This document shows positions 2,609 to 62,735 of a DNA stretch of 64,000 bases, in pieces (the stretch's first letter is position 1; the number at the start of each line of letters is the position of its first letter). The translations under genes were made by a program, and so were the position numbers. Below the pieces are notes generated by a model. It was not told the DNA's origin. It did not search any database and worked only from the letters and a program-made list of their open reading frames with translations. Origin of the DNA: an uncultured Gemmatimonadales bacterium (GTDB lineage Bacteria; Gemmatimonadota; Gemmatimonadetes; Gemmatimonadales; GWC2-71-9); assembly GCA_963795085.1 (NCBI GenBank), contig CAWCFX010000006.1, positions 768,001 to 832,000 of the forward strand, given 5' to 3'.

Positions 2609-3454
2609 TCAGGCGGCCCCCCACTCGGCCCAGCTTCCATCATACAGGGCAATATCCCTGGCCCCCAAAACATGCAGGCCCAGCAACAGGGCGCAAGCCG
2701 TGGTGCCGGAGCCACATGTAGCCACCACCGGGAGTTGGATGTCTATCCCTGCACCCTGAAACGTCTTCCGCAGTTCGGCCGGGGCCAGCAGGGTCCCATC
2801 GGGACCGACCAGGGCCTGGAAGGGAAGATTGAGACTGCCCGGAATATGTCCCCCGCGGAGCCCGGGACGGGGCTCCGGCTCCTCGCCCCGGAAGCGCCCG
2901 GGAGAGCGGGCATCCAGGACCTGTTCGCGCCTGGTCTCCAGGTTCCTGCGCAGGTCGGCCATCGCGCGCACCATATGAGGGCGCGGATTCGGGGTGAACG
3001 TGGCGGTCGTTGACGGCGCGGGCCCGGGCCCGGATTCCAGCGGGCGGCCTTCGTTCGTCCACTTGCCGAGCCCGCCATCGAGCACCGCGGACTGGTCATG
3101 CCCGAATACGCGCAACATCCACCAGACCCGGGCCGCGCTCAGGTTGGCACCGCTGCTGTCGTACACAATCACGGTGTCGCGGTCGGCCACGCCCAGCCGG
3201 GCCATGGCGGCGCCGAAGTGCCCGGCGTCGGGCAACATGTGGGGCAGCCGGCTGGCCGGGTCGGAGACCGCATCGAGATCGCAGTAGGTCGCGCCTGGAA
3301 CATGGCCGGCCTCGTACTCACGCCGGGGATCGCGGCCCGCGTGGGGGAGGTACCACGAGGCATCGAGCACCCGCACGCCGGGATCGCGCAGGTGCCTGGC
3401 CAGCCATTCGGTTGTGACGAGGGAGTCGCGCGGATCGCTGCCGCGCTCAGGCAC
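2609..3454 (-). CDS. sseA: 3-mercaptopyruvate sulfurtransferase (tandem rhodanese)
   Basis: LVTTEWL, GHVPGA, DARSPGRF, GHIPG, CGSGTTA active loop and LYDGSWAEW signature. GTG start at 3454 overlaps the upstream stop. Confidence 0.9.
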   Translation of the reverse strand: MPERGSDPRDSLVTTEWLARHLRDPGVRVLDASWYLPHAGRDPRREYEAGHVPGATYCDLDAVSDPASRLPHMLPDAGHFGAAMARLGVADRDTVIVYDSSGANLSAARVWWMLRVFGHDQSAVLDGGLGKWTNEGRPLESGPGPAPSTTATFTPNPRPHMVRAMADLRRNLETRREQVLDARSPGRFRGEEPEPRPGLRGGHIPGSLNLPFQALVGPDGTLLAPAELRKTFQGAGIDIQLPVVATCGSGTTACALLLGLHVLGARDIALYDGSWAEWGAA

Positions 3455-4196
3455 CTGCGGTATCGATGAAGGAGGTGAACAGCGCCCGCATCCCGGCGTC
3501 GTGATCGACCAGCGACTCGGGATGCCACTGTACGCCGACCATGAAGTGACCATTGGAGGATTCGATCGCCTCGATGAGTCCGTCCGGGGCCACCGCCGAC
3601 ACCGTGAGTCCCTGGCCCAGCTGTTTGACGCCCTGGTGGTGCATGCTGTTGACCAGCACATCGGGCCGCTGGAGAATGCGGCCGAGCCGCGAGGCGGAGA
3701 CGACCTCCACCGGGTGAGCCAGGTAATCGCGGGCAAAGCCGGCGGTGGGGAAGTAATCGTGCTTGATGGCGTGGGGAAACTCGGCACCGAGATCCTGGTA
3801 GAGCGTGCCGCCGAGGGCCACGTTGATGACCTGGCTTCCGCGGCAGAGTCCGAGCACCGGTTTCTTGTCCTGGGCGGCCCAGCGGGTCAGGGTGAGTTCG
3901 ACCTTGTCGCGGGCCAGGTCGGTGTTGCCGAGCAGGGGGCTCGGCGCTGCGCCGAAGGTGGCGGGGTCCATGTCCACGCCCCCGGGAATGAGGACGCCGT
4001 CGAGCGCCTCGTAGATCGCGCGGAGACCCGCCTCGTCCTCGTCCAGGAGGGGCACCATCACCGGAGCGCCGCCCGCCTCGCTGACCGCGTGGATATACCG
4101 CTGGTTCATCATCCATGACGACGGCAGCCCCTCGGGGATGCCGTCGATGGAATGCAGGGTCTGGGTCGTGATCCCGATCACGGGCCGGCGGGCCAT
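3447..4196 (-). CDS. Gamma-glutamyl-gamma-aminobutyrate hydrolase family protein (PuuD-like, peptidase C26 GATase)
   Basis: RPVIGIT, GGVDMDP, LGLCRGSQ (catalytic Cys), VNSMHHQ, GVQWHPE. Confidence 0.9.
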   Translation of the reverse strand: MARRPVIGITTQTLHSIDGIPEGLPSSWMMNQRYIHAVSEAGGAPVMVPLLDEDEAGLRAIYEALDGVLIPGGVDMDPATFGAAPSPLLGNTDLARDKVELTLTRWAAQDKKPVLGLCRGSQVINVALGGTLYQDLGAEFPHAIKHDYFPTAGFARDYLAHPVEVVSASRLGRILQRPDVLVNSMHHQGVKQLGQGLTVSAVAPDGLIEAIESSNGHFMVGVQWHPESLVDHDAGMRALFTSFIDTAGA

Positions 4197-4268
4197 TCAA
4201 GCTCCAGGTAAAGGGACAGCCAGTGGAGGAAAGTTAATTCACGGCCCCGGCCCAGGCTATCGGCTGGG

Positions 4269-5375
4269 TCACACCACGCCTTCTTCGGTCTCGGCGATCA
4301 GCTGGTCCACCACGGAGGAGAAATCCTGGGTCCGCTTATAGGTGGCGAGCTGGCGGTCCGCGCTGGTGCCGTTCTTGAGGATCTCAAAGGCATATTCCAC
4401 TTCGCGGCGGCTGCCGAGTTCGTCCAGGACATCGTCGATGAACCACCGGATCAGTTCCTCGATCAGCTCGCGGGCCGGCTGTTCCCGGTTCTTGCCCAGG
4501 TCCACCAGGTTGCCGTCGAGCCCATAGCGCACCGCGCGCCACTTGTTTTCCTCAATTAGCGTGCCAGGGTAGTTCCGGAAGGTGAGGTTGTCGCGGCGGA
4601 GTTTCCAGAGCTTCGCGATGATCGCCTGCAGGATCGCCGCAACGCTGACCGCTTCATCCACCCGGGTGCAGACGTCGCAGAGGCGGAATTCCAGGGTCGG
4701 ATAGCTGTGGTTGGGCCGCACGTCCCACCAGATCTTGGAGCCGTTGGGAATGCAGTTGGTTTCGGTCATCGTCTCCAGCAGCGCCTGGTAGTCGGTCCAG
4801 TCGCGGAGCAGCGGCGGAATCCCGGTGCGGGGAAAGTTCCGGAAAATGACGCTGCGATAGGACTTGAGCCCGGTGGTGCGGCCCATCCAGAACGGCGAGC
4901 TGGTCGAGAGGCAGAGCACGTGGGGCACGAAGTAGCGCGACACGTTCATCGCGTCGATCAGGAAATCGCGGTCTTCGATGCCGATGTGGACGTGGGTGCC
5001 GAAGATGAGCAGCCGCTGGGCCAGGTCGGCGAGGTCCTGGCGGACGCCCATGTAGCGTTCCAGCGGAGTGATCTCCTGGGAGAGCCAGGAGGAGAACGGG
5101 TGGGTGCCGGCCGCGGCGATCTTGAGGCCGTTCTTGGCGGCCAGCCGCATCACGGTGCCCCGGAGCCGCACCAGTTCGCTCCGCGCCTCGGCCGGCGTCT
5201 GGCACACGTTGGTGCCGATCTCGACCATGGACTGGTGCAGCTCCGGCTTCACTTCCCCCAGGACCACGCTGTCTTCCTTGAGAATCTGCGTGATGTAGGA
5301 CTGCAGTTCCCGGGTCTTGGGATCAATGATCTGGTACTCTTCTTCGATGCCCAGGGTCAGGGACGGGGCTTTCAT
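4269..5375 (-). CDS. Carboxylate-amine ligase, YbdK/GCS2 (glutamate-cysteine ligase 2) family
   Basis: TLGIEEEYQIID, FGTHVHIG, SSPFW, WWDVRP, TLEFRLCD, ENKWRAVRYG. Confidence 0.93.
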   Translation of the reverse strand: MKAPSLTLGIEEEYQIIDPKTRELQSYITQILKEDSVVLGEVKPELHQSMVEIGTNVCQTPAEARSELVRLRGTVMRLAAKNGLKIAAAGTHPFSSWLSQEITPLERYMGVRQDLADLAQRLLIFGTHVHIGIEDRDFLIDAMNVSRYFVPHVLCLSTSSPFWMGRTTGLKSYRSVIFRNFPRTGIPPLLRDWTDYQALLETMTETNCIPNGSKIWWDVRPNHSYPTLEFRLCDVCTRVDEAVSVAAILQAIIAKLWKLRRDNLTFRNYPGTLIEENKWRAVRYGLDGNLVDLGKNREQPARELIEELIRWFIDDVLDELGSRREVEYAFEILKNGTSADRQLATYKRTQDFSSVVDQLIAETEEGVV

Positions 5376-5402
5376 GGCGAACTCCGCTGTGAGGCTTGAG
5401 GC

Positions 5403-6749
5403 TTACCGCTTCTCGGCCAGGAACGTGGGCACGGTGGAGCCGCCGCCGGAGGTGACGTTCAGCAGGGCGGCGGTCGAGAGCCGGGTCAGCTGGCCCTGCA
5501 TGAAATCACCGTAGCTGACGAACGGGGCGGTATCGAGCATCCGGTCCATGAGGAGCAGGTTGCCGTCCACCAGGCTGGGATAGGGCTCGCTGGGGATGGG
5601 GACCCGCTCCTGCACGATGTAGGGAGCGGCCAGCGCCTCCTGGATGGCGGCATGCCAGTTGGTCTCGGTCACCTGCCAGCCCAGCACGATCCCGGCCCCG
5701 CCGTAGTCGTCGTTGGGCTTGAGCACCATGCGGTCGCGCCGGTCGGCGATATACGGCAGCAGGTCGATGGATTCCCCGCCGTGCATGGTGGTGCGCTCTT
5801 CCACGATCCGGGTCCAGGGCACATGGGCCCGGATGGCCTCCAGTTCGTCGGGACGGAAGAGGTGGCTGTTGCGCTCGTCGCTCAGCACGGCGAGGCTGGC
5901 CTTCTTGTGCAGGATCTTGCTGCGAAACGGGTTGATCATGCAGACGGCGTTGTCCCGGACCGCGCGCACCACGGCATGGTCGAGACCGCAGACCTTGACC
6001 AGTTCGGTGATGAGGACCCGCTTGTAGATCAGGTCCACCGGCGCCCCGTGGGCGATCAGCCGGCCATCATGGTAGTCCATCTCGCGGGGGTCGGCGATCA
6101 CGCACTCGATGCCCAGGGCGTGGAAGTACCGCTCGTAGAGCACGAACTCGTTCCGGGTCGGCACGTCGGGCCAGTCCACGATGGCCACCCGGGGAAGCGC
6201 CCGGCTCCGGGACCACTGGTGGTAGGCATCGAGCAGGACGTTGACCACGCCGGCCTGGGAGAGCAGCGGTTCCAGCTGGTACTCGCGGCTGAAGGCCCGC
6301 ATCACCGGCAGCGAGGCGAACGCGTTGCACAGCTCGTCGTTGAAGCCGGCCCCGGCGGGGGTCTCCGCGTTGTACTCGGTCAGGGCCATGGTCCCGGCCT
6401 CGTCCATCACGAACGCGTCGAGCCGGGAGGTAGGGCTCGAATCGGCATAGCCGGGATCGTGGCCGATGAGCTGTTCTTCCCAGCCCTCCAGCCGGAACTG
6501 CTCCCGGAAGTCCGGGTCCGCCACCGCGGCCTGGTAGGCGCTCTGGAAGGCCCGCATCAGGACCCGGACCCGCCGCTGCATCAGGTCGTGCTGGGCCCTG
6601 GTCATCAGCCGGGGGCGCAGCACGGTACAGAGCGCCCGGTCACCGAAGATCAGGCCGCGGTGAGCCAGCTGGCCTTCGAGCAGGGCGTGGCTGTCGGCCG
6701 CCAGCTCCGGCGTCAGGAGGTCGTGGTAGTCCTGGATGGGGGTGGCCAC
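5403..6749 (-). CDS. Circularly permuted ATP-grasp ligase
   Basis: [14 protein letters not shown] near the N-terminus, [47 protein letters not shown]. Confidence 0.85.
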
Positions 6750-6752
6750 CGC

Positions 6753-7688
6753 TTACTTGCGGCCCGCCGTGAACATCGCGCTCCATTTCAGATCTTCGGC
6801 CTGCTTGCGCGGCGCCTTGGCGTACTGGATCACCATGTCCGCCATGTTCTGCACGACCCATTCGAAGTAGTGCGGCGTCAGCGAATTGACGTCCATGTCC
6901 GGGGCCGGGTTCATGAAGTCGATGGCGTAGGGAATCCCGCCGCGCACCGCGAACTCCAGGGAGTTCATGTCGTACCCCAGCGCCCGGCAGAGGGTCTGCG
7001 AATCCTTCACGATGCGGGCGCCCAGTTCCGGCGACAGGTGCTCGTGCTCGAGCAGGTAGCGCCGCTCCCGGGGATCGTATTTCATCGGGAGGACCTTCTC
7101 CTGGCCCAGGCAGAGACAGCGGACGAACTGGTCCCACTCGATGAACTCCTGCACCACCATGGTGAGCAGCCCGGAGCCGTCGTAGTTGTGGATCAGCTCC
7201 TCGAGCGAACGGCACACATAGACCTCCTTCCAGCCGCCGCCATGGGCATCCTTCAGGATGCAGGGCATCCCGATGTAGTCCACGATCGCCTTCCAGTCGA
7301 GCGGATAGGTGAGGTTCCGGAGACTTTCCTCCGGCACGATGCCCGGGATGTAGGCCTTGTTGGGGAGGGCCAGGGTCTTGGGATGGGCGACCCCCAGCCG
7401 GGTCGCCAGCGAGGCCCCGAAATACTTGTCATCCGCGGTCCACATGAACGGATTGTTGACCACGCTGGTCCCCTGCAGCACCGCGTTCTTCAGGTAGCTG
7501 CGGTAGTAGGGAACCTCGTGGGATATCCGGTCCACGATGACATCGTAGGGACAGGGTTCGTTCATCGCCACGGCGCCAATCTTCACGAACTCGGCCACGA
7601 CGCCCTGGTCCCGGCCGGCGACCTCGTCGATGAACCTGGGCGGGAAGGACCACTCCCGGCCCACCATCAATCCGACACGCTTCGTCAT
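6753..7688 (-). CDS. RimK/GshB-like ATP-grasp ligase
   Basis: Start reassigned to MTKRVGLMVGRE (the upstream extension is translated repeat). VVNNPF..ADDK, PKT, LKDAHGGGWK, VQEFI, IDFMNPAPD. Confidence 0.85.
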   Translation of the reverse strand: MTKRVGLMVGREWSFPPRFIDEVAGRDQGVVAEFVKIGAVAMNEPCPYDVIVDRISHEVPYYRSYLKNAVLQGTSVVNNPFMWTADDKYFGASLATRLGVAHPKTLALPNKAYIPGIVPEESLRNLTYPLDWKAIVDYIGMPCILKDAHGGGWKEVYVCRSLEELIHNYDGSGLLTMVVQEFIEWDQFVRCLCLGQEKVLPMKYDPRERRYLLEHEHLSPELGARIVKDSQTLCRALGYDMNSLEFAVRGGIPYAIDFMNPAPDMDVNSLTPHYFEWVVQNMADMVIQYAKAPRKQAEDLKWSAMFTAGRK

Positions 7689-7714
7689 AGTTCCAAGTTC
7701 CGGTGAAAGTGAGA

Positions 7715-7965
7715 CAGTGGGACAGTGGGACAGTGGGTCAGTGGGACAGTGGGTCAGTGGGTCAGTGGGACAGTGGGTCAGTGGGTCAGTGGGACAGTGG
7801 GACAGTGGGGCAGGCAGGGGGCCAGGGGGCCAGGGGGCCAGGGGGCCGTAGTACCCTAATGGGTTGTTGCCCTCTTGCCCCCTCACCCTCTTGCCCCCTT
7901 TGTTGCCCTCTTGCCCCCTTACCCTCTTGCCCCCTTCGTTGCCCTCTTGCCCTCTTGCCCCCTTG
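7715..7965. repeat. Intergenic composite tandem repeat: (CAGTGGGA/T)n, (GGCCAGGG)n, then (CCCTCTTGCC/TTGCCCCT)n
   Basis: Directly visible at 7715-7809, about 7817-7847 and about 7867-7965. Confidence 0.95.
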
Positions 7966-8685
7966 TCAATCGTGCCCCCCGACGTAGGCCCGGATCATCC
8001 GCTCCCAGTAGGGCCAGTCGTGGGACCAGCCGTCCCACTCCCGGAGCGCGTTGCCGATGCCCTTGTTCCACAGGATCCCGGAGAACTCGCGATTGTTGTG
8101 GATCGAGGGATCGTCCTTGCCGATGGCGAGAATCACGTCCTGGCGGCGCAACGCGTCGAGCCGGCCGGGATCGTGCTCGTGGACCAGGAAATCCATCGGA
8201 TTGGACTGATAGACGTTCTCGTCCGAGTACCCGCCGGTGAGCCGCTTGATGTCGTACAGCCCGCTCAATCCGATGATTCGCTGGACCAGGTGCGGGTGCC
8301 GAAAACCGAACGACGCGGCCTGGAAGGCGCCCAGGCTGGCCCCGGTCGCGATGACGAAGGGGGTGCCGTTCACGCTGTTCATGAACGGGGTCACTTCGTG
8401 AGCGAGGTAGGCGTCGTATTGAAGGTGGCGCCAGGCCTGGGCCCCGGGATGCACGGTGTCCGCGTTCCAGCTCTCACTGTTGACCTGGTCCACGCAGAAC
8501 ATCTGGAGCCAGCCCTGCTCCAGCTGGTCGCCCAGCACCTCGTGCATCCGGCGGTCGCCCCACTCAGTGAAGCTGCCCATCGAAGTGGGAAACACCAGCA
8601 GTTTCGCCCCGGCGTGGCCGAACACCAGGAGGTCCATCGGTTTCCCCAGCGCGGGGCTATGCCAACGGTGATGCTCGGTCTTCAC
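7966..8685 (-). CDS. Alpha/beta-hydrolase esterase family protein
   Basis: WHSPALG..FGHAG..VFPTS, GASLG nucleophile elbow, HDWPYW. Confidence 0.85.
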   Translation of the reverse strand: MKTEHHRWHSPALGKPMDLLVFGHAGAKLLVFPTSMGSFTEWGDRRMHEVLGDQLEQGWLQMFCVDQVNSESWNADTVHPGAQAWRHLQYDAYLAHEVTPFMNSVNGTPFVIATGASLGAFQAASFGFRHPHLVQRIIGLSGLYDIKRLTGGYSDENVYQSNPMDFLVHEHDPGRLDALRRQDVILAIGKDDPSIHNNREFSGILWNKGIGNALREWDGWSHDWPYWERMIRAYVGGHD

Positions 8686-9494
8686 GGATGGGTTCCTTGT
8701 GAGGTAACCAGAAAGGGAAGCGCGGCCTTGAACCGGCGGCCCCAGGCCGCTTCAGTATGCCCCGCGCCCGGCTCTTCAACCCAGCGCAGGTCCTCTCCCT
8801 CGCGGTAACCCTTGGCCAGCAGGATCTCTCGCATCCGGCGCGCGTTGGCCAGGGTGGAGGCCCCTTCGTTGGTCCCGATATCCAGGTAGATCTTCCCTGG
8901 TACCCGGGGAGCCGTCTCAATAAAAGGGAAGATAGCCCGGTCCGCAAACCACAGCGCCGGACTCAGGCTGGCCACGAATCCGAAATCCCCGGGCCGAGCG
9001 AAAAAGCCGTACAGGCTGATCAAGCCTCCCATGGAGGACCCGCCCAATCCGGTCGTTTCCCGGCCTGGCAGAGTCCGGAATGACCGGTCCACCAGCGGCT
9101 TGACCGTATCCACCACGAAATCCAGGTAGTCATCTCCCTTGCCGCCGCCCGCCTCGGCGTCCACGTAGGGGCTGTACTCGGCGATCCGCTCCTCCCCCAT
9201 GTTGGGGATACCGACAATGATCGCCTCGACACCCCGGCGCGGCAGGCCGGCACCGTCCATCAGACCCCAGTCCCCCGCAAAACTCTTGGCCGGATCGAAA
9301 AGGTTCTGCCCATCCTGCATGTAGATCGCCGGGTATCGTCGCTTGGCGGACTGATAGCCAGGCGGAAGGTACACGACAATCTCACGGGCATTGCCCAATG
9401 GCGGGCTGAGAACGGCGCCAAGCGACTTGAGGGTCCCTGCCGCCCGACGCCGGGGTTTCCAGTTGAGCAGTGCACGAGGCCAGCGAAGCATCAA
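8682..9494 (-). CDS. Alpha/beta hydrolase (IroE/Fes-like esterase)
   Basis: VYLPPGY, YMQDGQNLFD, GGSSMGG, YLDIGTNE, HTEAAW. 4-nt overlap with the next gene. Confidence 0.9.
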   Translation of the reverse strand: MMLRWPRALLNWKPRRRAAGTLKSLGAVLSPPLGNAREIVVYLPPGYQSAKRRYPAIYMQDGQNLFDPAKSFAGDWGLMDGAGLPRRGVEAIIVGIPNMGEERIAEYSPYVDAEAGGGKGDDYLDFVVDTVKPLVDRSFRTLPGRETTGLGGSSMGGLISLYGFFARPGDFGFVASLSPALWFADRAIFPFIETAPRVPGKIYLDIGTNEGASTLANARRMREILLAKGYREGEDLRWVEEPGAGHTEAAWGRRFKAALPFLVTSQGTHP

Positions 9495-9800
9495 TCAGGC
9501 GGGCTGGGGTGGAACCATGGGGCGGTGCCCCGGGAAGGCGTACAACCTAAATGAGCCGTTAATCCGGGCACAGCCTTCACCCCGCAGAAGCCCGCCGAAT
9601 ACCGGATCAGGGCAGGCCCGATCCCCGCCCCTGCCGAGCCGCCAGCATCCTCGCAAACTGCGATGCAAAACAGGCCAGAAAGCGTACACTAACTGTGTTA
9701 AGTCTTTTAAAATGAAGGGTATAAGCGTGGCCCACCTGTTGCTTTGATGAACAGCGACAGCATAGCACCAGACCGGGGACACTTACCAGGGGCATCGGCC

Positions 9801-11636
9801 ATGTATCGCATTCGACTCGCTTCGGGCGCCGAGACGACCTACCACAGCATCGACGAGCTGACCTCCGCCCTGCAGGGTGGCGAGGTCACCGCGGAGGCCT
9901 TGATCTACCACCAGCGGGCAGACCGCTGGCTCACGATTACCAACCATCCCCACTACAAGATCGCGATGACCCGGGCCACCGGCGAGCACCCGGCCGGGAG
10001 CCGCCCCGTTCCCTCAGCCCAGCCCGATGCCGGGAAGCGGCAGGTCATTGCGGCCATCCGGCCTTCGGGATCGCACGTGCCACCCACCCGGGTCCAGGGC
10101 CGGCCGGAAGTGCCTCCGACGGCGATCCGAGACAAGCTCTTCGAGGTGGTGGCCGAGATGGAGAAGGCGAACCAGCCGAAGGCGGCACCCCGCAAGCTCA
10201 GCATTCCAGCGCCCCGGAAACCGGATAACAGCGGGCTCAGAGCCCACGAGAATGTCCTCGAAGGTGTGGTGGTGGACCGGCTGGCTGCTCCGGCTCCAAC
10301 TCCTCCGGCACCCGTTTCTCCGGCCGCGCCGGTTTCCAGGACCACGGTGCTGCCGATCCGTGCCGCGAAGCCGCCGGCCCCCGAAACCCCCTCCGTGCCC
10401 GATCTCGGCGATGGCCTCGACCTGGTCGAAGAACCCATCGCGGCGGAGCCGATGGCGGCTCCCCCGCAGCGGGTGAGCGGAGCCACCCCACAGGTGGACC
10501 GGCTGCTGGAGCTGCTGGAACCGGCCCCGAAGCCCGCACCGGAAGTGGCGCCCCGGACCTCGCGGGAACTGAAGTTGATTGACCCGGGTACCCCCTCGGA
10601 TATCGAGCCGGCGGCCGTTCTCGCCGCCGAACCGGAGATCGTGGAGCAGGCACCGGAACCGGAGCCATACCAGGTTCCTGCCCACCTGACCTATCGGCGG
10701 AGACGGCGGGAAAAGAAAGCGGTCATGGTGGCGGCGGCCGTGGCGCTCGTCGCCGTGGGGACGTTCTTCTGGAAGCCCTGGGCCAGTGCTACCGAGCGGG
10801 GCGCCGAAGGCGCGGTCATGGCGTCCCTGCCCCGGACCGAGGCGTTTGGCGGGTCATCCTCCAGTCCGGTTCCGCCGCCTGCGTACGCCGAGACCCCGGC
10901 CGAGAGGGCCGCCCCGGCACCGGCAATTGTCGCCCCTACTGTGGGGGAGCGCCCGATCGATAGCGCCCCTTCGATTATTCGGGTGGTGGCCCCCCGAAAC
11001 ATGGGCGTTCCGCCCACACCCAGCCTGGAGGCCAGCAACATCAGCGCTCCGACCCAGCGGGAGAGCGCGGGCGCCCTGATCCAGCGGTACAACGCGGCCT
11101 ACAACGAGGCCCGCTCGGAGCTGGAGTTGCGGATGCTCCAGGTCGGATTCACCCAGATATTCCTTCGCTCCCGCCTGAGTACTGCCGCGGGAATCCAGGA
11201 CACCCGCCGCCTGATCGCCTCCGCGAGTGGTGCCCTGCGCCAGTACCGAGGGGATGAGAGCCGGATCGAACGAGCCTACCAGGACACCATAGGGGTTGCC
11301 GGCCGGAAGGTGGGCTGGGGACCCCGCGACCTGGGGACCTGGAATGCCAAGCCCGGCCAGCAAGAGAGCGGCGAGACCCTCCGGCTCACCAACCTCATGC
11401 TGAGCCAGATGGACAGCACCTTCAGCCTCCTGGCGAATCAGATCGGCAAATACCGCATCACCGGTGAAGCCATCGTCTTCGACGACCCGGATGCCGCTCG
11501 GCAATACGGCGCCCTCCGGGGGTGGCTCAACCAGCAGGCCGACAAGTACTCCGGCTCCGGCGACGCGCTGCCGGCCACCCTGCGCCAGGTGGTCAAGGCG
11601 ATCGGGGCGACCAGGCTGCCGGCGGAGAAGCGCTAG
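9801..11636 (+). CDS. Hypothetical bitopic membrane protein: small N-terminal domain (GYF_2-like), Pro/Ala-rich linker, TM helix, C-terminal helical domain
   Basis: Long ORF. Probable start MYRIRLASG; TM segment VMVAAAVALVAVGTFFW preceded by RRRRREKK. Confidence 0.65.
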   Translation: MYRIRLASGAETTYHSIDELTSALQGGEVTAEALIYHQRADRWLTITNHPHYKIAMTRATGEHPAGSRPVPSAQPDAGKRQVIAAIRPSGSHVPPTRVQGRPEVPPTAIRDKLFEVVAEMEKANQPKAAPRKLSIPAPRKPDNSGLRAHENVLEGVVVDRLAAPAPTPPAPVSPAAPVSRTTVLPIRAAKPPAPETPSVPDLGDGLDLVEEPIAAEPMAAPPQRVSGATPQVDRLLELLEPAPKPAPEVAPRTSRELKLIDPGTPSDIEPAAVLAAEPEIVEQAPEPEPYQVPAHLTYRRRRREKKAVMVAAAVALVAVGTFFWKPWASATERGAEGAVMASLPRTEAFGGSSSSPVPPPAYAETPAERAAPAPAIVAPTVGERPIDSAPSIIRVVAPRNMGVPPTPSLEASNISAPTQRESAGALIQRYNAAYNEARSELELRMLQVGFTQIFLRSRLSTAAGIQDTRRLIASASGALRQYRGDESRIERAYQDTIGVAGRKVGWGPRDLGTWNAKPGQQESGETLRLTNLMLSQMDSTFSLLANQIGKYRITGEAIVFDDPDAARQYGALRGWLNQQADKYSGSGDALPATLRQVVKAIGATRLPAEKR

Positions 11637-11725
11637 AATCGAGGGCGGTAGAAACAGGGCGGGAGGAAACAGAAACGACCCCGTAACTCGGGGCCGTTGA
11701 TTATTCATTGGTGACTCGAAATCGC

Positions 11726-12411: not shown

Positions 12412-13098
12412 TCAGGGATTAGCGCAGGGGCCGGCCAGGTCCCCGATCCAACGGCCAACCACGCTGGCCATCTCGGTTTGGGCGTCCTCGTCGGTCCGCC
12501 CGGAGCGACGGGGAAGGTGAAACGAGTGGTCCCCACCCTCGACGACGTGGACTGTCGCCCGGGGCCCCAGGCCATCCGATACCCCCTTCATCAGGGCCAG
12601 GTCGGCCAGGGAATCCCGGGTGCCCTGGATAAAGAGCAGGGGGACGGTAACCAGCGGCAGATGATCCGCCCGCGCGGTGCCGGGGTTCTTCGGGGGGTGC
12701 AGGGGGAAGCCGAAGAACACCAACCCCCGAACCCCGGCCAGGGCCTCTTTGGCGGCGGCGCCGCTGGTCATCCGGCCTCCCATGGACTTTCCCCCGGCGA
12801 ACAGGGGCAGGCCAGAGGCGACCTCCGCACCGGCGGCGACGGCGGCCCGCACCGTGGCCTCGAGCAGGGGCGGGCGATCCGGCTGGCGCCGGCCCTGGTC
12901 CATATATGGGAACTGGTATCGGAGGGTGCCCACCCCCTCCCCAGCCAGCCGCACCGCCAGGGCCTCCATGAAGGGGTGGCGCATGCCCGCGCCGGCCCCG
13001 TGGGCAAGGACCAGCAGGGCACCGGCCGGCTCCGGCATATGGAGAATGGCGGACACCCTTCCAGCCCTGGTCCCGGTCTCGATGGTCAGATCCCTCAT
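12412..13098 (-). CDS. Alpha/beta hydrolase (KANL3/Tex30-like, dienelactone-hydrolase related)
   Basis: LAHGAGAGM, GGKSMGGR, GFPLHPP, QGTRD, GGDHSF. ATGA overlap with the ligD stop. Confidence 0.88.
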   Translation of the reverse strand: MRDLTIETGTRAGRVSAILHMPEPAGALLVLAHGAGAGMRHPFMEALAVRLAGEGVGTLRYQFPYMDQGRRQPDRPPLLEATVRAAVAAGAEVASGLPLFAGGKSMGGRMTSGAAAKEALAGVRGLVFFGFPLHPPKNPGTARADHLPLVTVPLLFIQGTRDSLADLALMKGVSDGLGPRATVHVVEGGDHSFHLPRRSGRTDEDAQTEMASVVGRWIGDLAGPCANP

Positions 13099-15152
13099 GC
13101 AAGCTCCTCCTGCAGCGCGGCCAGCGCGCTCCCCAGGTCCGGCGTGGTGGCAATGATCGGAAGCAGCGGATCCTCTCCCAGCGACCGCATCCGGTCCACC
13201 GCGTTCCTGATAGTAAAGCTGCGAATATCGAGGGCGCCATTGACCTCGCTCCAGCGGAGCGGCATGGACACCGGCGCCCCGGCCAGCGGCCGTACGCTGT
13301 AGGGCGAGACCAGCAGCTTGCCGTGCCCGTTCTGGAGGAAATCCACGTACACCTTGCCGCCCCGCCTGTTCACCGCGCGGGTGATAGTGGCCACCCGGGG
13401 AACCATCTTGACCAGCGCCTGGGCCAGGATTTCGCCCATGGCCCGGGCCTGGTCGTGGGTGAACTGGCGAGCCAGCGGAATCATCACGTGGAGTCCCGAA
13501 GACCCCGTCGTCTTGATGAACGCCGGCAACCCGATCCGCTGGCAGAGCGACTGCGCGGCCTGGGCCACCTCCACCACGTGGGCGAAGGGCGCGTCCTTGG
13601 GATCAAGGTCCAGGCTGCACCAGTCGGGGTGGGTAATGGCGGGGAGCCGGCTGGCCCAGATATGCAGCGGAATGGCGGCCATGTTGGCCAGGTAGCGCAG
13701 GCCGTCAATGCCGTCCACGACGAAGTAATCGATATCCCGTTCGGCATGGGCGCTCCACATCCGTTCGGTGCGGAGATACTCCCGGGCATAGTCCGGCGCG
13801 TCTTTCTGAAAAAAGGACTTGCCGTGGATGCCGTCGGGAAACCGGGTGAGGACGACCGGCCTCTGGTCCAGGTAAGGCAGCAGCCAGGGCGCGACGGCGC
13901 CGTAGTAGTCGATCAGGTCCCCCTTGGTGAGGCCGTCTTCCGGCCAGAAGACCTTGTCCCGATTGCTGACTTTCAGCGCGGACCGTCCGGTCGCGTGGGC
14001 CGCCGGGGCGCGTTTCGGGGGCGGGGCCAGCGCCGGGGCAGCCGACACCGCCGGGGCGCCGATCTGGCGAACGCACTCGTCGGGCGGCTTGTCGTCACGA
14101 AAGCGGAGAAAGGCAGGCTGCCGGAGGTAGCCCTCGTCGGTCAGTTCCTTGAACCGCACCTCGGCCACCATCTCCGGCTGCACCCAGGTGGCGGTGCGAA
14201 AGTCGGGAACCGAGCGGAGCGGTATGGTTCCCTCCGTTGCCCCCGGCGGGACGGGGCCCTCGCATGGCGGTGTCTTTCGTTCCAGCCGGTCCAGTTCCCG
14301 GCGCACCTCCGTAAGCTGCCGGGCGTTGAAACCGGTCCCCACCCGGCCGGCATACACCAGCCGCCCCGCCACGTACTGCCCCACGTGGAGCGCCCCGAAT
14401 CCTTGCCGGGAGCCCTTGGGCTGGGTGTACCCCACCACCACGAAATCGTCGGTCTGGTCGGCCCTGATCTTGAGCCAGTTGGGCGAGCGCCCTCCGCGAT
14501 AGGCACACTCGGCTTTCTTGGCCACGATCCCTTCCAGCCCCAGTTTGACGGCATGCTCGAACAACGGCACGCCCAGGCCCTCGAAATGGTCGAGATACCG
14601 GATGGTGCCATCCCCGGGAACCAGTTTTCGAAGGAACTCCTTGCGGGCCAGGAGCGGCAGCGGGCGCAGGTCGAGACCGGCGAAGCCCAGCAGGTCAAAC
14701 GCGAAAAAAATAGTGGGCCACTTTCGGGACGCGCGTCCCACCTCGAGGGACTTGGCGAGCTTGCCTCGCTGCTGCAGCCGCTGGAAACTGGGCCTCCCGC
14801 GCTGGTCCATGGCTACCACCTCGCCATCCAGCACCAGGTCCTCCCCCGGCAAATCGGCCATCGCGGCCACGACCTCGGGGAAGCTGCCGGCCAGGTCGTT
14901 CCCGTTCCGGCTGAGCAGCTGGACGCTGCCCCCGGTCCGGCCGGCCAGCAGCCGGTAGCCATCCAGCTTGATCTCAAAGACCCACCCCTCCCGGTCAAAG
15001 GCACGGGGATGCACCTCCGCCAGCATCATGTCGACGGCGACAGGATCAACAGGCTGGCGGATCGCCCCGGCGGCGAGCGCTTCCCGCTCGAGTTCACCGG
15101 CGGACCCGGGGGGACGCTTCTTCACGCGGGGCGAACCCGGGAGGCCATCCAC
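13095..15152 (-). CDS. ligD: DNA ligase D (ligase + primase/polymerase domains, no phosphoesterase domain)
   Basis: EIKLDGYR, LDGEVV, FAFDLL, EGIVAKK, WLKIR; POL domain NRDKVFWP, TKGDLIDYY, LTRFPDGI, DLDP, KTTGSSGLH, DFLQN, PYSVR. Confidence 0.95.
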   Translation of the reverse strand: MDGLPGSPRVKKRPPGSAGELEREALAAGAIRQPVDPVAVDMMLAEVHPRAFDREGWVFEIKLDGYRLLAGRTGGSVQLLSRNGNDLAGSFPEVVAAMADLPGEDLVLDGEVVAMDQRGRPSFQRLQQRGKLAKSLEVGRASRKWPTIFFAFDLLGFAGLDLRPLPLLARKEFLRKLVPGDGTIRYLDHFEGLGVPLFEHAVKLGLEGIVAKKAECAYRGGRSPNWLKIRADQTDDFVVVGYTQPKGSRQGFGALHVGQYVAGRLVYAGRVGTGFNARQLTEVRRELDRLERKTPPCEGPVPPGATEGTIPLRSVPDFRTATWVQPEMVAEVRFKELTDEGYLRQPAFLRFRDDKPPDECVRQIGAPAVSAAPALAPPPKRAPAAHATGRSALKVSNRDKVFWPEDGLTKGDLIDYYGAVAPWLLPYLDQRPVVLTRFPDGIHGKSFFQKDAPDYAREYLRTERMWSAHAERDIDYFVVDGIDGLRYLANMAAIPLHIWASRLPAITHPDWCSLDLDPKDAPFAHVVEVAQAAQSLCQRIGLPAFIKTTGSSGLHVMIPLARQFTHDQARAMGEILAQALVKMVPRVATITRAVNRRGGKVYVDFLQNGHGKLLVSPYSVRPLAGAPVSMPLRWSEVNGALDIRSFTIRNAVDRMRSLGEDPLLPIIATTPDLGSALAALQEELA

Positions 15153-32078: not shown

Positions 32079-32203
32079 CCACTGTCCCACTGACCCACTG
32101 ACCCACTGACCCACTGATCCCACTGTCCCACTGACCCACTGACCCACTGTCCCACTGACCCACTGACCCACTGTCCCACTGACCCACTGACCCACTGTCC
32201 CAC
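32079..32203. repeat. Octamer tandem repeat (CCCACTGA/T)n
   Basis: Reverse complement of the tracts at 7715 and 54389. Confidence 0.95.
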
Positions 32204-42644: not shown

Positions 42645-43550
42645 TCAGGCCAGGTGGCTCCTGAGCAGCTCCCGGAACGAGTCGGGCCCGATCACCTGGG
42701 CCTCGGCGCCATACTGCAGGACGTGGCGTACCAGCCACTCCGGGCTGGCTACCTGGTAGGTCACCACCACACCGCCATCAGCCGCCACCACCGCATCGGG
42801 ATGGCGCTCCCGAATCCACCGGGCAATCGCCGGTGAGAACCGGACCTGGACGGGGGTCGTGCCGTCCGCCGGCGGATGAAACGAGCCGGACGGCGGCGTG
42901 AAGTCGGGGCGCGGCGTATAATAGCCTTCCATGACCAGGGCATCGAGCACCCGGTCGGCCCGAAAATGGCGCCAGCCGTTCGCCAGTTCGCACCATGCCA
43001 CGATGTAGGTGTGTCCGCCGTCTTCCAGCACCTGGTAGGGATGGATGACCCGGTTGATCCCGCCAATGCTGCGCTCGCCGGTGTAGCGGATCTCGACCTT
43101 GCGGCGGTCGGTGATCGCCCGGCGGACCAGGGTGCTGACCGGCGGGATGACCCGGCCTCCGCCTTGAAGGGCCTGGGGTGGCCGCTCCGACGTGAGCAGG
43201 AGACTGGCCAGGGCGCTGCTCAGCGCCGGCGCCCCTTCTTCCGCCAGCAACCCCATCTGGACCGCGACCAGCTCATCCCGGGTGAACCGGATCGGCCGGC
43301 GAAAGGGGCCGCCACTCCGAAGCGAAATCCGGTCGCCCTCCTGGAAGGCGCTGAGGGAGAGGAGCCAGTCGGCGTCGGAGTCGTCGCCCAGCCTGGTCAT
43401 GGCCCGGACGTCCGCCTCGATCTGCCGGCGGGTGGTGCCGAAGCGCTCGGCCAGTTCGGCAATCGGGGTATCCTCCTCGCCGCGCTGACTCCGCCGGGTC
43501 AGCTCCGCGACCAGGCTGACGATCCGGTTGACCTGCTCCGCCGAGCTCAC
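42645..43550 (-). CDS. PafC-like HTH-WYL-WCX transcriptional regulator
   Basis: IAELAERFGTTRRQIEADV, IHPY, YIVAWC, RHFRADRV, LQYG. Confidence 0.88.
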   Translation of the reverse strand: MSSAEQVNRIVSLVAELTRRSQRGEEDTPIAELAERFGTTRRQIEADVRAMTRLGDDSDADWLLSLSAFQEGDRISLRSGGPFRRPIRFTRDELVAVQMGLLAEEGAPALSSALASLLLTSERPPQALQGGGRVIPPVSTLVRRAITDRRKVEIRYTGERSIGGINRVIHPYQVLEDGGHTYIVAWCELANGWRHFRADRVLDALVMEGYYTPRPDFTPPSGSFHPPADGTTPVQVRFSPAIARWIRERHPDAVVAADGGVVVTYQVASPEWLVRHVLQYGAEAQVIGPDSFRELLRSHLA

Positions 43551-43559
43551 CGGTGTGCC

Positions 43560-44636
43560 TCAGGCATAGAGCTGAGCGACCTGGCCACGCAATGCTTCCA
43601 GTTCAACGCGGGTCTCCTGGGGTGAAAGGACGTCGGCCTGCCGGCGGAAGGTGAGCAGCCACCGGAGAAAGGGATGCAGGTCCTGCACGCTGAAATCGAT
43701 GATCGCGCCGCCGTCGTCCAGCATCGGCTCGACCGGTTCTCCCAGGTCCTGGGCCATGACCCAGCGAGACTCGGGGAAGGCGAAGCGCACCCGGACCCGG
43801 GTGGGCTGCCCGCCGGAGAGCTGCCAGGGCGCCCGCCCCAGGTAGGCCCGGATCGAGAAGTCGGCGGGGACGGTAAAGCGGGCCTGCTTGCCTTTTTGCA
43901 GGGCGGTCTGGCGCATGCGGTCCACCCGGAACACCCGGAGTGCGTCGCGGTCCCGGGCGCGGCCCACGCAATACCAGCGGCCCCAATTGAAAAAGAGCCC
44001 GAAGGGTTCGATATCCCGCGGTTCCTCCCGGTTGCGCCCGATCGAGTGGTAACTGCAGGTCACCGCGTTCCGCTCAGCCACCGCCTGCTGCAGCACCTCG
44101 AGGGAGCGGGTGGTTTCCCCGCCGGTCGCCGCGGCCAGTACCCGCTCCACCGCGGCCTGGGGCAGCGGCAGGTCGAACTCCAGTTTGCGCCGGGCCGATG
44201 CGGCCGCGGATCCAATCGGCGATTCAGCCCGCTGCGCCACCAGCTGGGTGGCCCGGTCCAGCACTTCGAGATCCCCGGGCGACACCGGTACCCGGGCCAG
44301 GCCCTGGTAAAGCTGTTCCGGTATCCCCGACTGGTGAAGCTCGAGATACGGGAGGTAGAACGAACCGGGCGAGAGACGGTACCCGGTGGCCGGCTCATCC
44401 CCCTGGGCATCGGGGATCGGCACGGTTTCGATGCTGATGCCCAGTCCGCGGAGCTCGTCCTTGTCGCGCTCGAACATTCGGCGGGTGATCTCTCCTCCCT
44501 TTCCCCCCGGCACGTCCTCCTCGTCCTCCTCGTACCCATGCACGCTCCGGTAGATGTCGGCCCGGCTCACCGGGAACCGGTGTTGCAGCAGGTAGGCAAT
44601 GAGATCGAGCCAGCGGGCGGTCTTGGCAGCGCTCAT
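43560..44636 (-). CDS. PafB-like HTH-WYL-WCX transcriptional regulator
   Basis: RRMFERDKDELRGLGI (PafB hallmark), IEPFGL, WYCVG, RVFRVDRM. Confidence 0.9.
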   Translation of the reverse strand: MSAAKTARWLDLIAYLLQHRFPVSRADIYRSVHGYEEDEEDVPGGKGGEITRRMFERDKDELRGLGISIETVPIPDAQGDEPATGYRLSPGSFYLPYLELHQSGIPEQLYQGLARVPVSPGDLEVLDRATQLVAQRAESPIGSAAASARRKLEFDLPLPQAAVERVLAAATGGETTRSLEVLQQAVAERNAVTCSYHSIGRNREEPRDIEPFGLFFNWGRWYCVGRARDRDALRVFRVDRMRQTALQKGKQARFTVPADFSIRAYLGRAPWQLSGGQPTRVRVRFAFPESRWVMAQDLGEPVEPMLDDGGAIIDFSVQDLHPFLRWLLTFRRQADVLSPQETRVELEALRGQVAQLYA

Positions 44637-54388: not shown

Positions 54389-54539
54389 CAGTGGGTCAGT
54401 GGGACAGTGGGACAGTGGGACAGTGGGACAGTGGGACAGTGGGTCAGTGGGTCAGTGGGACAGTGGGACAGTGGGTCAGTGGGACAGTGGGTCAGTGGGG
54501 CAAGTGGGACAGTGGGACAGTGGGTCAGTGGGGCAGTGG
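54389..54539. repeat. Octamer tandem repeat (CAGTGGGA/T)n
   Basis: Same unit as the tract at 7715-7809. Confidence 0.95.
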
Positions 54540-56840: not shown

Positions 56841-56997
56841 CTACTCCCGCCCTCTTTACTCCCGCCCTCTTTCCTACCGCCCGTTTCTACCGCCCTCTTT
56901 TCTACCGCCCGTTTCTACCGCCCGTTTTCTCCCGCCCGTTTTCTCCCGCCCTGTTCCTACCGCCCTGTTCCTACCGCCCTGTTCCTACCGCCCTCTC
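56841..56997. repeat. Tandem repeat (TT(C)CTACCGCCC(TG))n
   Basis: Directly visible; same core as 62541-62735. Confidence 0.9.
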
Positions 56998-58624: not shown

Positions 58625-59177
58625 CTTGCCCTGCCTGATCACGAAAGCACGAACGACAAACTACAAAGCGTGAACGACAAAGCACGAACGACAAAGCACG
58701 AACGACAAAGTACGAACGACAAAGTACGAAATAGGCAAAACACAAGAAACAACTCTGACAGATACGGCTTCTTCTTCGCCAAGTTGCTGTTTTATTGGTG
58801 TTCTTTTCTTGTATTTCGTGCTTTGTTGTACCGGGCAGGGCTCGTGCGCACAATAGTCTAGCGGGACAACGCGGGGGCTGGCCCTGCCTGATCACGAAAG
58901 CACGAACTACAAACTGCAAAAGCGCGAACTCGTGCTTTGTTGTACCGGGCAGGGCTCGTGCGCACAATAGTCTAGCGGGACAACGCGGAGGCTGGCCCTG
59001 TCTGATCACGAAAGCACGAACTACAAACTGCAAAAGCGCGAACTCGTGCTTTGTTGTACCGGGCAGGGCTCGTGCGCACAATAGTCTAGCGGGGCACACG
59101 CCTTATGATTGTTCTTCTCTTTGTATTTCGTGCTTTGTTGTCCCGGGCAGGGCTCGTGCGCACAATAGTCTAGCGGG
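58625..59177. repeat. Array of a MITE/REPIN-like element: four copies of a 50-bp core plus (ACGACAAAGCACGA)n
   Basis: Core TCGTGCTTTGTTGT(A/C)CCGGGCAGGGCTCGTGCGCACAATAGTCTAGCGGG at 58816, 58930, 59044 and 59128. Confidence 0.92.
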
Positions 59178-61080: not shown

Positions 61081-61466
61081 AAGCGGTGAGCGGTGAGAAG
61101 TGAGCAGGCTTCGAAACAGGCAAAGCGAGACACTCGGGGCTGGCCCTGCCTGATCACGAAAGCACGAACGACAAACTACAAAGCGCGAACGACAAAGCAC
61201 GAACGACAAAGCACGAACGACAAAGCACGAAATAGACAAAACACAAGAAACACTCCCGACAATACGGCTTCTTCTTCGCCAATGGCCGTTTTATTGGTGT
61301 TCTTTTCTTGTATTTCGTGCTTTGTTGTCCCGGGCAGGGCTCGTGCGCACAATAGTCTAGCGGGACTCTCTTGGGGCTGGCCCTCTCTGTTTACTGCTGT
61401 TTTCGTTTCTTGTATTTCGTGCTTTGTCGTCCCGGGCAGGGCTCGTGCGCACAATAGTCTAGCGGG
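61081..61466. repeat. Second array of the same element (50-bp core at 61315 and 61417)
   Basis: About 61137-61364 is a near copy of about 58625-58865. Confidence 0.92.
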
Positions 61467-62540: not shown

Positions 62541-62735
62541 ACCGCCCAGTTAGTTCCACCGCCAGCCGCTGGCAGATCCGCCCAGTATAGTGCGTGAGGC
62601 TAAGCCCTGTTCTACCGCCCCGTCATACCGCCCAGTTAGTTCTACCGCCCTGTCCTACCGCCCCGTCATACCGCCCAGTTAGTTCTACCGCCCTGTCCTA
62701 CCGCCCTTTCGTACCGCCCAGTTCTCCCGCCCAGT
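62541..62735. repeat. Tandem repeat (TACCGCCC..)n
   Basis: Directly visible. Confidence 0.9.

Follow-up and report, generated by a model that had tools for sequence, protein, structure and literature searches.

Gene Content of the Locus

This work deals with a cluster of amide ligase and hydrolase genes located at positions 2609-9494 of a 64,000-nt stretch of DNA (hereafter, the window) from an uncultured Gemmatimonadales bacterium (assembly GCA_963795085.1, contig CAWCFX010000006.1, positions 768,001 to 832,000 of the forward strand). Six of these genes are conserved as an operon-like unit, and the proteins they encode may make and degrade a small peptide or amide of the gamma-glutamyl type. 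The closest named database proteins to those of the window belong to Gemmatimonadota, and the G+C content per 1-kb segment lies between 0.62 and 0.73 across the first 16 kb.

Gene families were called with Pfam and NCBIfam profiles. Seven genes are found on the minus strand which, in the direction of transcription, are the following: (i) esterase-1 (8682-9494; PF00756, E 2.8e-30, 106.4 bits); (ii) esterase-2 (7966-8685), a divergent serine hydrolase of the same family (26 bits against a cut-off of 22); (iii) an ATP-grasp ligase of an unannotated family (6753-7688), whose predicted model has the three-domain classical fold according to Foldseek; (iv) a circularly permuted (CP) ATP-grasp ligase (5403-6749; PF14403, 36.8 bits against a gathering score of 32), hereafter the CP enzyme; (v) a YbdK/GCS2-type carboxylate-amine ligase, hereafter GCS2 (4269-5375; PF04107, E 1.8e-57); (vi) Peptidase C26, a class-I amidotransferase-like gamma-glutamyl-amide hydrolase, hereafter C26 (3447-4196; PF07722, E 2.6e-63); and (vii) an sseA-type 3-mercaptopyruvate sulfurtransferase with two rhodanese domains (2609-3454; NF008557, 265 bits against 250). 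Esterase-2 and the ATP-grasp gene are separated by a tandem-repeat spacer of 277 nt (7689-7965). On the open reading frame (ORF) map, a divergent intergenic region of 249 nt (9495-9743) lies 5' of esterase-1 and is presumed to be the promoter region of the operon.

Three junctions could be read directly from the sequence: esterase-1 and esterase-2 overlap in GTGA (8682-8685); the ATP-grasp and CP-ATP-grasp genes are separated by a gap of 3 nt (TAA-gcg-GTG, 6750-6752); and C26 and sseA overlap by 8 nt (GTGCCTGA, 3447-3454). These junctions, the positions of the seven co-oriented minus-strand ORFs and the family calls for all seven genes had been given in the original prediction, made from the sequence alone. 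The junctions and positions agree exactly with the sequence, and the family calls are borne out by the Pfam and NCBIfam profiles and the fold search.

Conservation of the Unit in Related Genomes

An alignment of 17 homologues of the CP enzyme was used for a profile scan of genome contigs, which gave at least 600 stretches, at least 573 of which were confirmed. The loci analyzed here are the best 80 of these (53 from Gemmatimonadota, 23 from Chloroflexota, one labelled Acidobacteriota and three without a label). The window proteins were compared with the 80 loci by tblastn, and a gene was scored only in those loci in which the flank was long enough to hold it.

The ATP-grasp gene lies beside the CP-enzyme gene in 66 of the 67 loci with room for it (46/46 in Gemmatimonadota and 18/18 in Chloroflexota), and esterase-2 is present in 51 of 60 (34/41 and 15/16, respectively), being upstream on the same strand in 44. 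Downstream of the CP enzyme, GCS2 is found in 57 of 69 loci (45/46 in Gemmatimonadota, 8/19 in Chloroflexota). The C26 gene (41 of 64 loci) is present in 41/44 Gemmatimonadota and 0/17 Chloroflexota loci. As for esterase-1, it must be considered an accessory gene, because it occurs in 27 of 57 loci (27/39 in Gemmatimonadota), in none of the 15 from Chloroflexota, and not in locus L045, described below. Hence, two levels of conservation can be recognized: (i) a three-gene core composed of esterase-2, ATP-grasp and CP-ATP-grasp; and (ii) a unit of six genes in Gemmatimonadota.

Forty-nine loci had full flanks. The commonest order among them, in 10 of the 49, is esterase-1, esterase-2, ATP-grasp, CP-ATP-grasp, GCS2 and C26, which is also the order in the window; 42 of the 49 carry at least three ligase genes and 47 at least one hydrolase gene. 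Median intergenic distances across the loci are 8-111 nt, that is, an operon-like spacing. The co-conservation of ligases and hydrolases on which the original prediction depended is therefore upheld, sseA excepted. The arrangement is far above chance, because the genes keep their order and strand in related loci from two phyla. It could be argued that unrelated housekeeping genes have come together fortuitously, since high-GC genomes are tightly packed and sseA overlaps its neighbour without a functional link; but the maintenance of gene order and strand in two phyla already contradicts this explanation, which is extremely improbable.

The seventh gene, sseA, is linked to the ligase genes in only one of the 61 loci with room for it (1/41 in Gemmatimonadota, 0/17 in Chloroflexota) and, consequently, the unit is one of six genes, not seven. 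That single locus, L045, is among those nearest the window in the CP-enzyme tree, lacks esterase-1 and has an opposite-strand CAP-domain gene between C26 and sseA. It follows that sseA is a bystander, a lineage-specific neighbour that came to overlap the last gene of the operon. The seven-gene cluster originally proposed thus holds only in part: six of its genes are co-conserved in Gemmatimonadota, sseA is not, and GCS2, C26 and esterase-1 fall outside the universal core.

The remaining ORFs of the 80 loci were clustered, and representatives were scanned for families. Extra ATP-grasp ligases of about 405 amino acids (ATP-grasp_4/ATPgrasp_N, distantly BacD/DdaF-like, L-amino-acid-ligase-like) occur in 14 of the 80 loci, with one or two copies each, and 21 of the 22 copies are on the operon strand; in two loci (L059 and L068), the extra ligase directly follows the CP enzyme, in the place of GCS2. 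An S9 peptidase is found in seven loci, mostly labelled Ktedonobacteraceae or Chloroflexia, and directly follows GCS2 in five of them, while five loci from Anaerolineales/Anaerolineae have, upstream, an S8 peptidase carrying a CBM48 domain (the identity of each peptidase was established from two representatives). The window itself holds, by tblastn, no homologue of these extra ligases or of the S9 and S8 peptidases. Histidine kinases are loosely recurrent neighbours. In agreement with the original prediction, which had seen no precursor peptide, alpha-E or transglutaminase gene, neither alpha-E nor transglutaminase was found among the seven window genes or their flanks, and the neighbours that recur in the 80 loci included no alpha-E, transglutaminase or small conserved ORF. 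Besides, there is no room for a precursor gene, because the intergenic gaps are short.

The Circularly Permuted ATP-Grasp Enzyme

The CP enzyme has 448 amino acids, and PF14403 spans residues 114-424. No additional domain was detected in Pfam, and PF03738 (at E ≤ 0.01), PF03917 and PF03199 gave no match; nor was there a match to any Pfam or NCBIfam glutathione synthetase family. A sequence search against the PDB retrieved no matches. Fused forms longer than 784 amino acids were not found among the homologues, an absence that is weak evidence. In the ESM Atlas, the CP enzyme falls among clusters with a minority of GSP_synth, CP_ATPgrasp_1/2 and GSH_synthase labels.

An AlphaFold2 model built from 30 sequences reached a mean predicted local distance difference test (pLDDT) value of 90.9 and a predicted TM-score (pTM) of 0.89. 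When this model was compared with the PDB using Foldseek, the top matches were the human, soybean, potato and yeast glutathione/homoglutathione synthetases (E 1.6e-17 to 1.9e-14, TM-score 0.64-0.70, 12-14% identity), followed by 3n6x, Escherichia coli glutathionylspermidine synthetase (GspS), the fungal E-64 ligase Cp1B, and E. coli YjfC/YgiC. All these matches share 12-18% identity with the CP enzyme at query-normalized TM-scores of about 0.5-0.7, values which do not separate glutathione synthetase, GspS, YgiC and Cp1B from one another. Judging from the model, the fold is of the glutathione-synthetase/glutathionylspermidine-synthetase type. Every one of the nearest characterized enzymes with the CP fold couples an amine to the carboxylate of a small molecule or a peptide. 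According to the available text of PMC12568646, Cp1B is an ATP-grasp amide-forming enzyme, and YgiC and YjfC are peptidylpolyamine synthetases (citing Pederick et al., 2023).

In the aligned set, the homologues are 51-83% identical to the CP enzyme of the window. In a maximum-likelihood tree of 78 CP enzymes, the phylum label changes 3-4 times, compared with about 20 when labels are shuffled and, therefore, inheritance looks mainly vertical with few transfers; with midpoint rooting, Chloroflexota are nested inside Gemmatimonadota. As a separate observation, the CP enzyme of the locus labelled Acidobacteriota (L076) groups as sister with the one from L032, a Ktedonobacteraceae locus, on very short branches (0.027 and 0.054), which suggests either a recent transfer or a mis-binned contig.

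The Unannotated ATP-Grasp Family

The second ATP-grasp protein (311 amino acids) matches no Pfam family. Its score against the RimK family TIGR00768 (E 9e-07, 28.5 bits) is far below the cut-off of 143.4, and a sequence search against solved structures gave only marginal matches. The AlphaFold2 model (pLDDT 83.6) retrieves Ddl, LysX/ArgX, RimK and MdnC with Foldseek at E values of about 1e-13 to 1e-11, which are generic matches. A HMMER search of 1.84 billion representatives returned 355 homologues at E ≤ 1e-30 and 1109 at E ≤ 1e-10. Those in named sources are all called "hypothetical protein", and their precomputed Pfam annotation consists of one tail match only. Identity across the two phyla, in the aligned set, is 61-75%. 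Some homologues bear long disordered tails that are Pro-rich, Gly/Ser-rich or Lys/Ala-rich. A prediction of a complex between the CP enzyme and this protein gave a score of 0.00 against a mark of 0.32, a result that counts neither way.

These features raise the question of a reversible, RimK-like protein tagging system in which a conserved protein, encoded outside the operon, would receive amino acids from the ATP-grasp enzymes and lose them again through the hydrolases. The likeness of the ATP-grasp protein to RimK and LysX/ArgX, which act on proteins, together with the unusually high cross-phylum conservation of this protein and the CP enzyme and the tails of some homologues, are consistent with such a system. 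However, the operon contains no gene for a conserved target or carrier, no alpha-E or transglutaminase partner was found in it or recurrently near it, the RimK score falls well short of the family cut-off, and the characterized CP-fold enzymes work on small molecules or peptides. All things considered, protein tagging is rather unlikely.

Two further observations concern this gene. One of the long homologues (P0346), a candidate ATP-grasp-GCS2 fusion, looks like a frameshifted read-through into a GCS2 gene rather than a true fusion. In two Anaerolineales/Anaerolineae loci, a PF01451 low-molecular-weight phosphatase/ArsC-like gene (8479-9018 in L043, 8471-8956 in L049) overlaps the upstream end of the ATP-grasp gene.

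The GCS2 Ligase and the Hydrolases

The closest solved structure to GCS2 is YbdK (1r8g, E 4e-49). This protein clears the generic carboxylate-amine ligase model NF010039 (520 bits against 371) and stays below the glutamate-cysteine ligase equivalog cut-offs, the best of these models being NF010043 (340.5 bits against 409). C26 matches PF07722 over its full length (profile positions 1-219 of 219), its closest structures being Lin1909 (3fij), PuuD (6vtv, E 1.5e-29) and 7d4r.

The combination of a glutamine synthetase (GS)-fold ligase with a C26 hydrolase parallels that of PuuA and PuuD, and brings to mind a Puu/Pau-style route of polyamine catabolism or salvage, in which an amine would be gamma-glutamylated by GCS2, processed and then deglutamylated by C26. 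The presence of PuuD and 7d4r among the structures closest to C26 speaks in favour of such a route. Nevertheless, C26 scores 115.6 bits against the PuuD equivalog, for which the cut-off is 266, none of the oxidase or dehydrogenase genes of such routes is linked in the loci, and two further ATP-consuming ligases would make no sense in catabolism. This explanation is very unlikely.

Regarding the two PF00756 proteins, no significant pairwise similarity was detected between them, so they are not close paralogues. Esterase-2 has only marginal sequence matches among solved structures. Across 24 homologues, S117 (in the motif G-A-S-x-G), H222 and D223 are invariant, and D183 is nearly so. Among solved structures, esterase-1 comes closest to siderophore esterases of the IroE type and to feruloyl esterases (E about 1e-9).

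The siderophore esterases are of relevance for yet another explanation, namely a secondary-metabolite cluster (for an antibiotic or a siderophore) in which ligases independent of non-ribosomal peptide synthetases would assemble the product, and IroE-like esterases would serve for its release or for self-protection. The extra BacD/DdaF-like ligases in 14 of the 80 loci point in the same direction and, according to the available text of PMC13674229, similar small ATP-grasp operons yield dipeptide natural products. But the CP-enzyme tree tracks the phylum labels, with far fewer changes than in the shuffles, the proteins are highly conserved, unlike those of typical accessory gene clusters, and no recurrent transporter, TonB receptor or resistance gene was found in the loci. 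In consequence, a cluster of this kind is quite unlikely.

Another explanation involves a low-molecular-weight thiol similar to glutathione: GCS2 would make gamma-Glu-Cys, the CP enzyme would extend it, the esterases would be thioesterases, and the thiol would feed SseA. The family PF00756 also includes esterase D/S-formylglutathione hydrolase, which lends this pathway some plausibility; it is further favoured by the fact that GCS2 immediately follows the CP enzyme, which has its best structural matches among glutathione synthetases, and by the 8-nt overlap between sseA and C26 in the window. Its main support is lost, however, with the finding that sseA is linked in one of 61 loci and is not operonic there. 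Moreover, GCS2 falls below the glutamate-cysteine ligase cut-off, 11 of 19 Chloroflexota loci have no GCS2 beside the core, Foldseek cannot tell glutathione synthetase from GspS, YgiC or Cp1B, and no S-formylglutathione hydrolase model was matched in NCBIfam at E ≤ 0.01. The thiol pathway is thus unlikely.

Proposed Function of the Operon

The operon brings together three distinct types of ATP-dependent carboxylate-amine ligases and up to three hydrolases, which are inherited together. According to the available text of PMC4431377, the linkage of ATP-grasp with COOH-NH2 ligases is an established hallmark of peptide bonds being formed in succession. From the observed identities and folds of these proteins, the catalytic residues of esterase-2 and the conserved order and spacing of the genes, we infer the substrates, the order of steps and the nature of the product, namely a small molecule as opposed to a tag on proteins. 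The most likely reading, to which we give about even chances, is that the operon makes and degrades a small, ribosome-independent gamma-glutamyl peptide or amide.

In such a route, the YbdK-type enzyme would activate a carboxylate, either the gamma-carboxylate of glutamate or one like it, and couple it to an amine. The two ATP-grasp enzymes, one with the glutathione-synthetase/peptide-polyamine-ligase fold and the other with the predicted Ddl/RimK/LysX fold, would then extend the product at a carboxylate with residues or an amine, via acyl-phosphate intermediates. As to the hydrolases, C26 would strip the gamma-glutamyl group and the PF00756 serine hydrolases would cut another amide or ester bond; together, they would set the steady-state level of the product or recycle it. 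The replacement of GCS2 by another ligase, and of C26 and esterase-1 by an S9 peptidase, in some relatives fits a family of related small peptides better than one compound.

Four points weigh against this reading. First, the very high cross-phylum identity of the ATP-grasp protein and the CP enzyme, and the disordered tails of some ATP-grasp homologues, would also fit an enzyme acting on a conserved macromolecule. Second, the gamma-glutamyl step is not universal, because Chloroflexota often have no adjacent GCS2 (8/19) and no C26 (0/17). Third, no transporter or regulator is consistently linked across the 80 loci. Fourth, as these loci are the best CP-enzyme matches, the counts cover close relatives only.

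The original prediction had proposed a build-and-recycle route for a gamma-glutamyl peptide, possibly a thiol coupled to the sulfurtransferase. Its general scheme gains from the co-conservation of the ligase/hydrolase operon, and its gamma-glutamyl chemistry would suit the pairing of a YbdK-type ligase with C26 in those genomes that have both, with GCS2 and C26 not being universal. The thiol product is unsupported, and so is the coupling to a persulfide-forming sulfurtransferase, which depended on one lineage-specific 8-nt overlap.

A more specific possibility, of which we are rather doubtful, is that Gemmatimonadota and many Chloroflexota contain an undescribed gamma-glutamyl peptide or peptide-amine conjugate, perhaps a glutathione-like redox or stress metabolite. 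This conjugate would be built by the YbdK-type ligase, a bacterial enzyme with the glutathione-synthetase fold and a new ATP-grasp family, and restrained by amidases or esterases of the alpha/beta-hydrolase type.

The operon is conserved across soil Gemmatimonadota and Chloroflexota, both in gene order and in sequence, and holds an ATP-grasp family that is absent from Pfam. Were its product a novel gamma-glutamyl peptide, thiol or polyamine conjugate, two abundant, poorly studied phyla would gain a metabolite class, and thousands of "hypothetical" proteins could be assigned functions. The comparison of loci narrows the candidates to six genes, or to the three-gene core, and the sulfurtransferase drops out of the model. 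To our knowledge, multi-ligase amide operons were flagged years ago by comparative genomics, and few of them have a known product. A literature search aimed at ligase neighbourhoods of this kind, whose coverage excluded most subscription journals, found no study of this operon.

Repeat Spacer and Flanking Regions

The gap between esterase-2 and the ATP-grasp gene is 277 nt long in the window, compared with a median of 45 nt in relatives. It contains G-rich 16/36-mers (7864-7965), a (CCCCCTGG)n array and a (CCCACTGW)n array (7708-7813). The G-rich block could pair with the C-rich blocks in a predicted long imperfect hairpin (-122.7 kcal/mol), which folds no better than shuffled RNA sequences (z = -0.87), and the spacer gave only sub-threshold hairpin- or microRNA-type matches in Rfam. 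No Rfam model reached its gathering score in the whole window, and none matched at E ≤ 1 upstream of esterase-1. Likewise, neither a sigma-70-like promoter site nor a terminator was found on the minus strand between 2300 and 9900.

The start codon of the ATP-grasp gene is most likely the ATG at 7688, the position at which its homologues begin. A longer ORF (6753-7886, GTG at 7886, 377 amino acids) runs through the repeats in frame with it. If this longer ORF were used, the repeats would encode a Pro-rich N-terminal tail; two homologues (P0164 and P0176) carry such tails.

The octamer array is a dispersed, lineage-specific microsatellite. It is present at three sites of the window with 13-19 copies (7708-7813, 32079-32203 and 54389-54539), and the pattern has 39 matches in the window against 0.01 expected. 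Two of the arrays are found just 5' of the start of a gene and share its orientation; the genes concerned are the ATP-grasp gene and a UPF0182 gene, in whose ORF the Pfam match starts at residue 96. Further tandem arrays occur at 11630-11672, 56847-56994, 58659-58730, 61174-61231, 58816-59101 and 62604-62737; they include the 14-mer AACGACAAAGCACG at two sites, 2.5 copies of a 114-bp unit and an array of 43-mers. Another 14-mer, CCGCCCTGTTTCTA, with 10.5 copies, resembles by eye the short opposite-strand array at 11630-11672.

Downstream of sseA, after 55 nt, there is a co-oriented eighth gene (ATG at 2553) which encodes a lipoprotein with a Big_1-like domain. In its product, which matches Big_1 weakly, the N-terminus is lipobox-like (LILAAGC); the gene (907-2553) forms a paralogous minus-strand pair with 223-876 (42% identity over 220 amino acids by tblastn). 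On the other side of the operon, the divergent plus-strand gene (9744-11636) encodes a protein of 630 amino acids with a Pro/Ala-rich middle and no Pfam or NCBIfam match; its homologue (36% identity) adjoins esterase-2 in L045, where esterase-1 is missing. Elsewhere on the minus strand of the window lie (i) a LigD-type ATP-dependent DNA ligase that carries a fused primase-polymerase domain, as used in non-homologous end joining (13095-15152); and (ii) tandem WYL/WCX regulators, one of them with a PafC-type helix-turn-helix, which resemble the PafB/PafC pair of Actinobacteria (42645-44636).

Comparison With Known Systems

Eukaryotic glutathione/homoglutathione synthetase is the best fold match of the CP enzyme which, in addition, adjoins a ligase of the GCS2 family. 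Unlike the glutathione pathway, the window operon has a third ligase and three hydrolases, and the identity is 12-14%. The same circularly permuted fold is present in E. coli GspSA and in the peptide-spermidine ligases YgiC/YjfC (13-18% identity). GspSA is a bifunctional synthetase/amidase in which the hydrolase half reverses the product of the ligase, and this association of a ligase with a reversing hydrolase is the logic proposed here for esterase-2. But while GspSA carries a CHAP amidase domain, the CP enzyme has none and the hydrolase of the window is encoded by a separate alpha/beta-hydrolase gene; no polyamine genes are linked to the operon.

Systems of the PuuA/PuuD and EgtA/EgtC type carry out a transient gamma-glutamylation by means of a GS-fold ligase and a gamma-glutamyl-amide hydrolase. 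The same pairing is found in the window, although without the context of those systems (oxidases, or a sulfoxide synthase). RimK/LysX/ArgX and D-Ala-D-Ala ligase share the fold of the ATP-grasp protein at 12-18% identity and with no family-level match. In short, no membership of the glutathione synthetase, GspS, RimK or PuuD families is apparent at the sequence level, and the likeness is one of fold only.

Operons with several amidoligases for the synthesis or modification of peptides were reportedly predicted by comparative genomics by Iyer, Abhiman, Burroughs and Aravind in 2009 (Mol Biosyst). In the summaries available in PMC4431377 and PMC3597751, such operons combine, as here, ATP-grasp, CP-ATP-grasp and GCS2 ligases with hydrolases. 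As far as the available text of PMC3597751 goes, the described CP_ATPgrasp system pairs with alpha-E and transglutaminase, to which the Pfam context of PF14403 adds an NTN hydrolase, whereas the window operon has neither alpha-E nor transglutaminase and contributes instead two new components, the PF00756 esterases and the Pfam-less ATP-grasp family. These multi-amidoligase operons are, among the described systems, the closest kind to the operon presented here.

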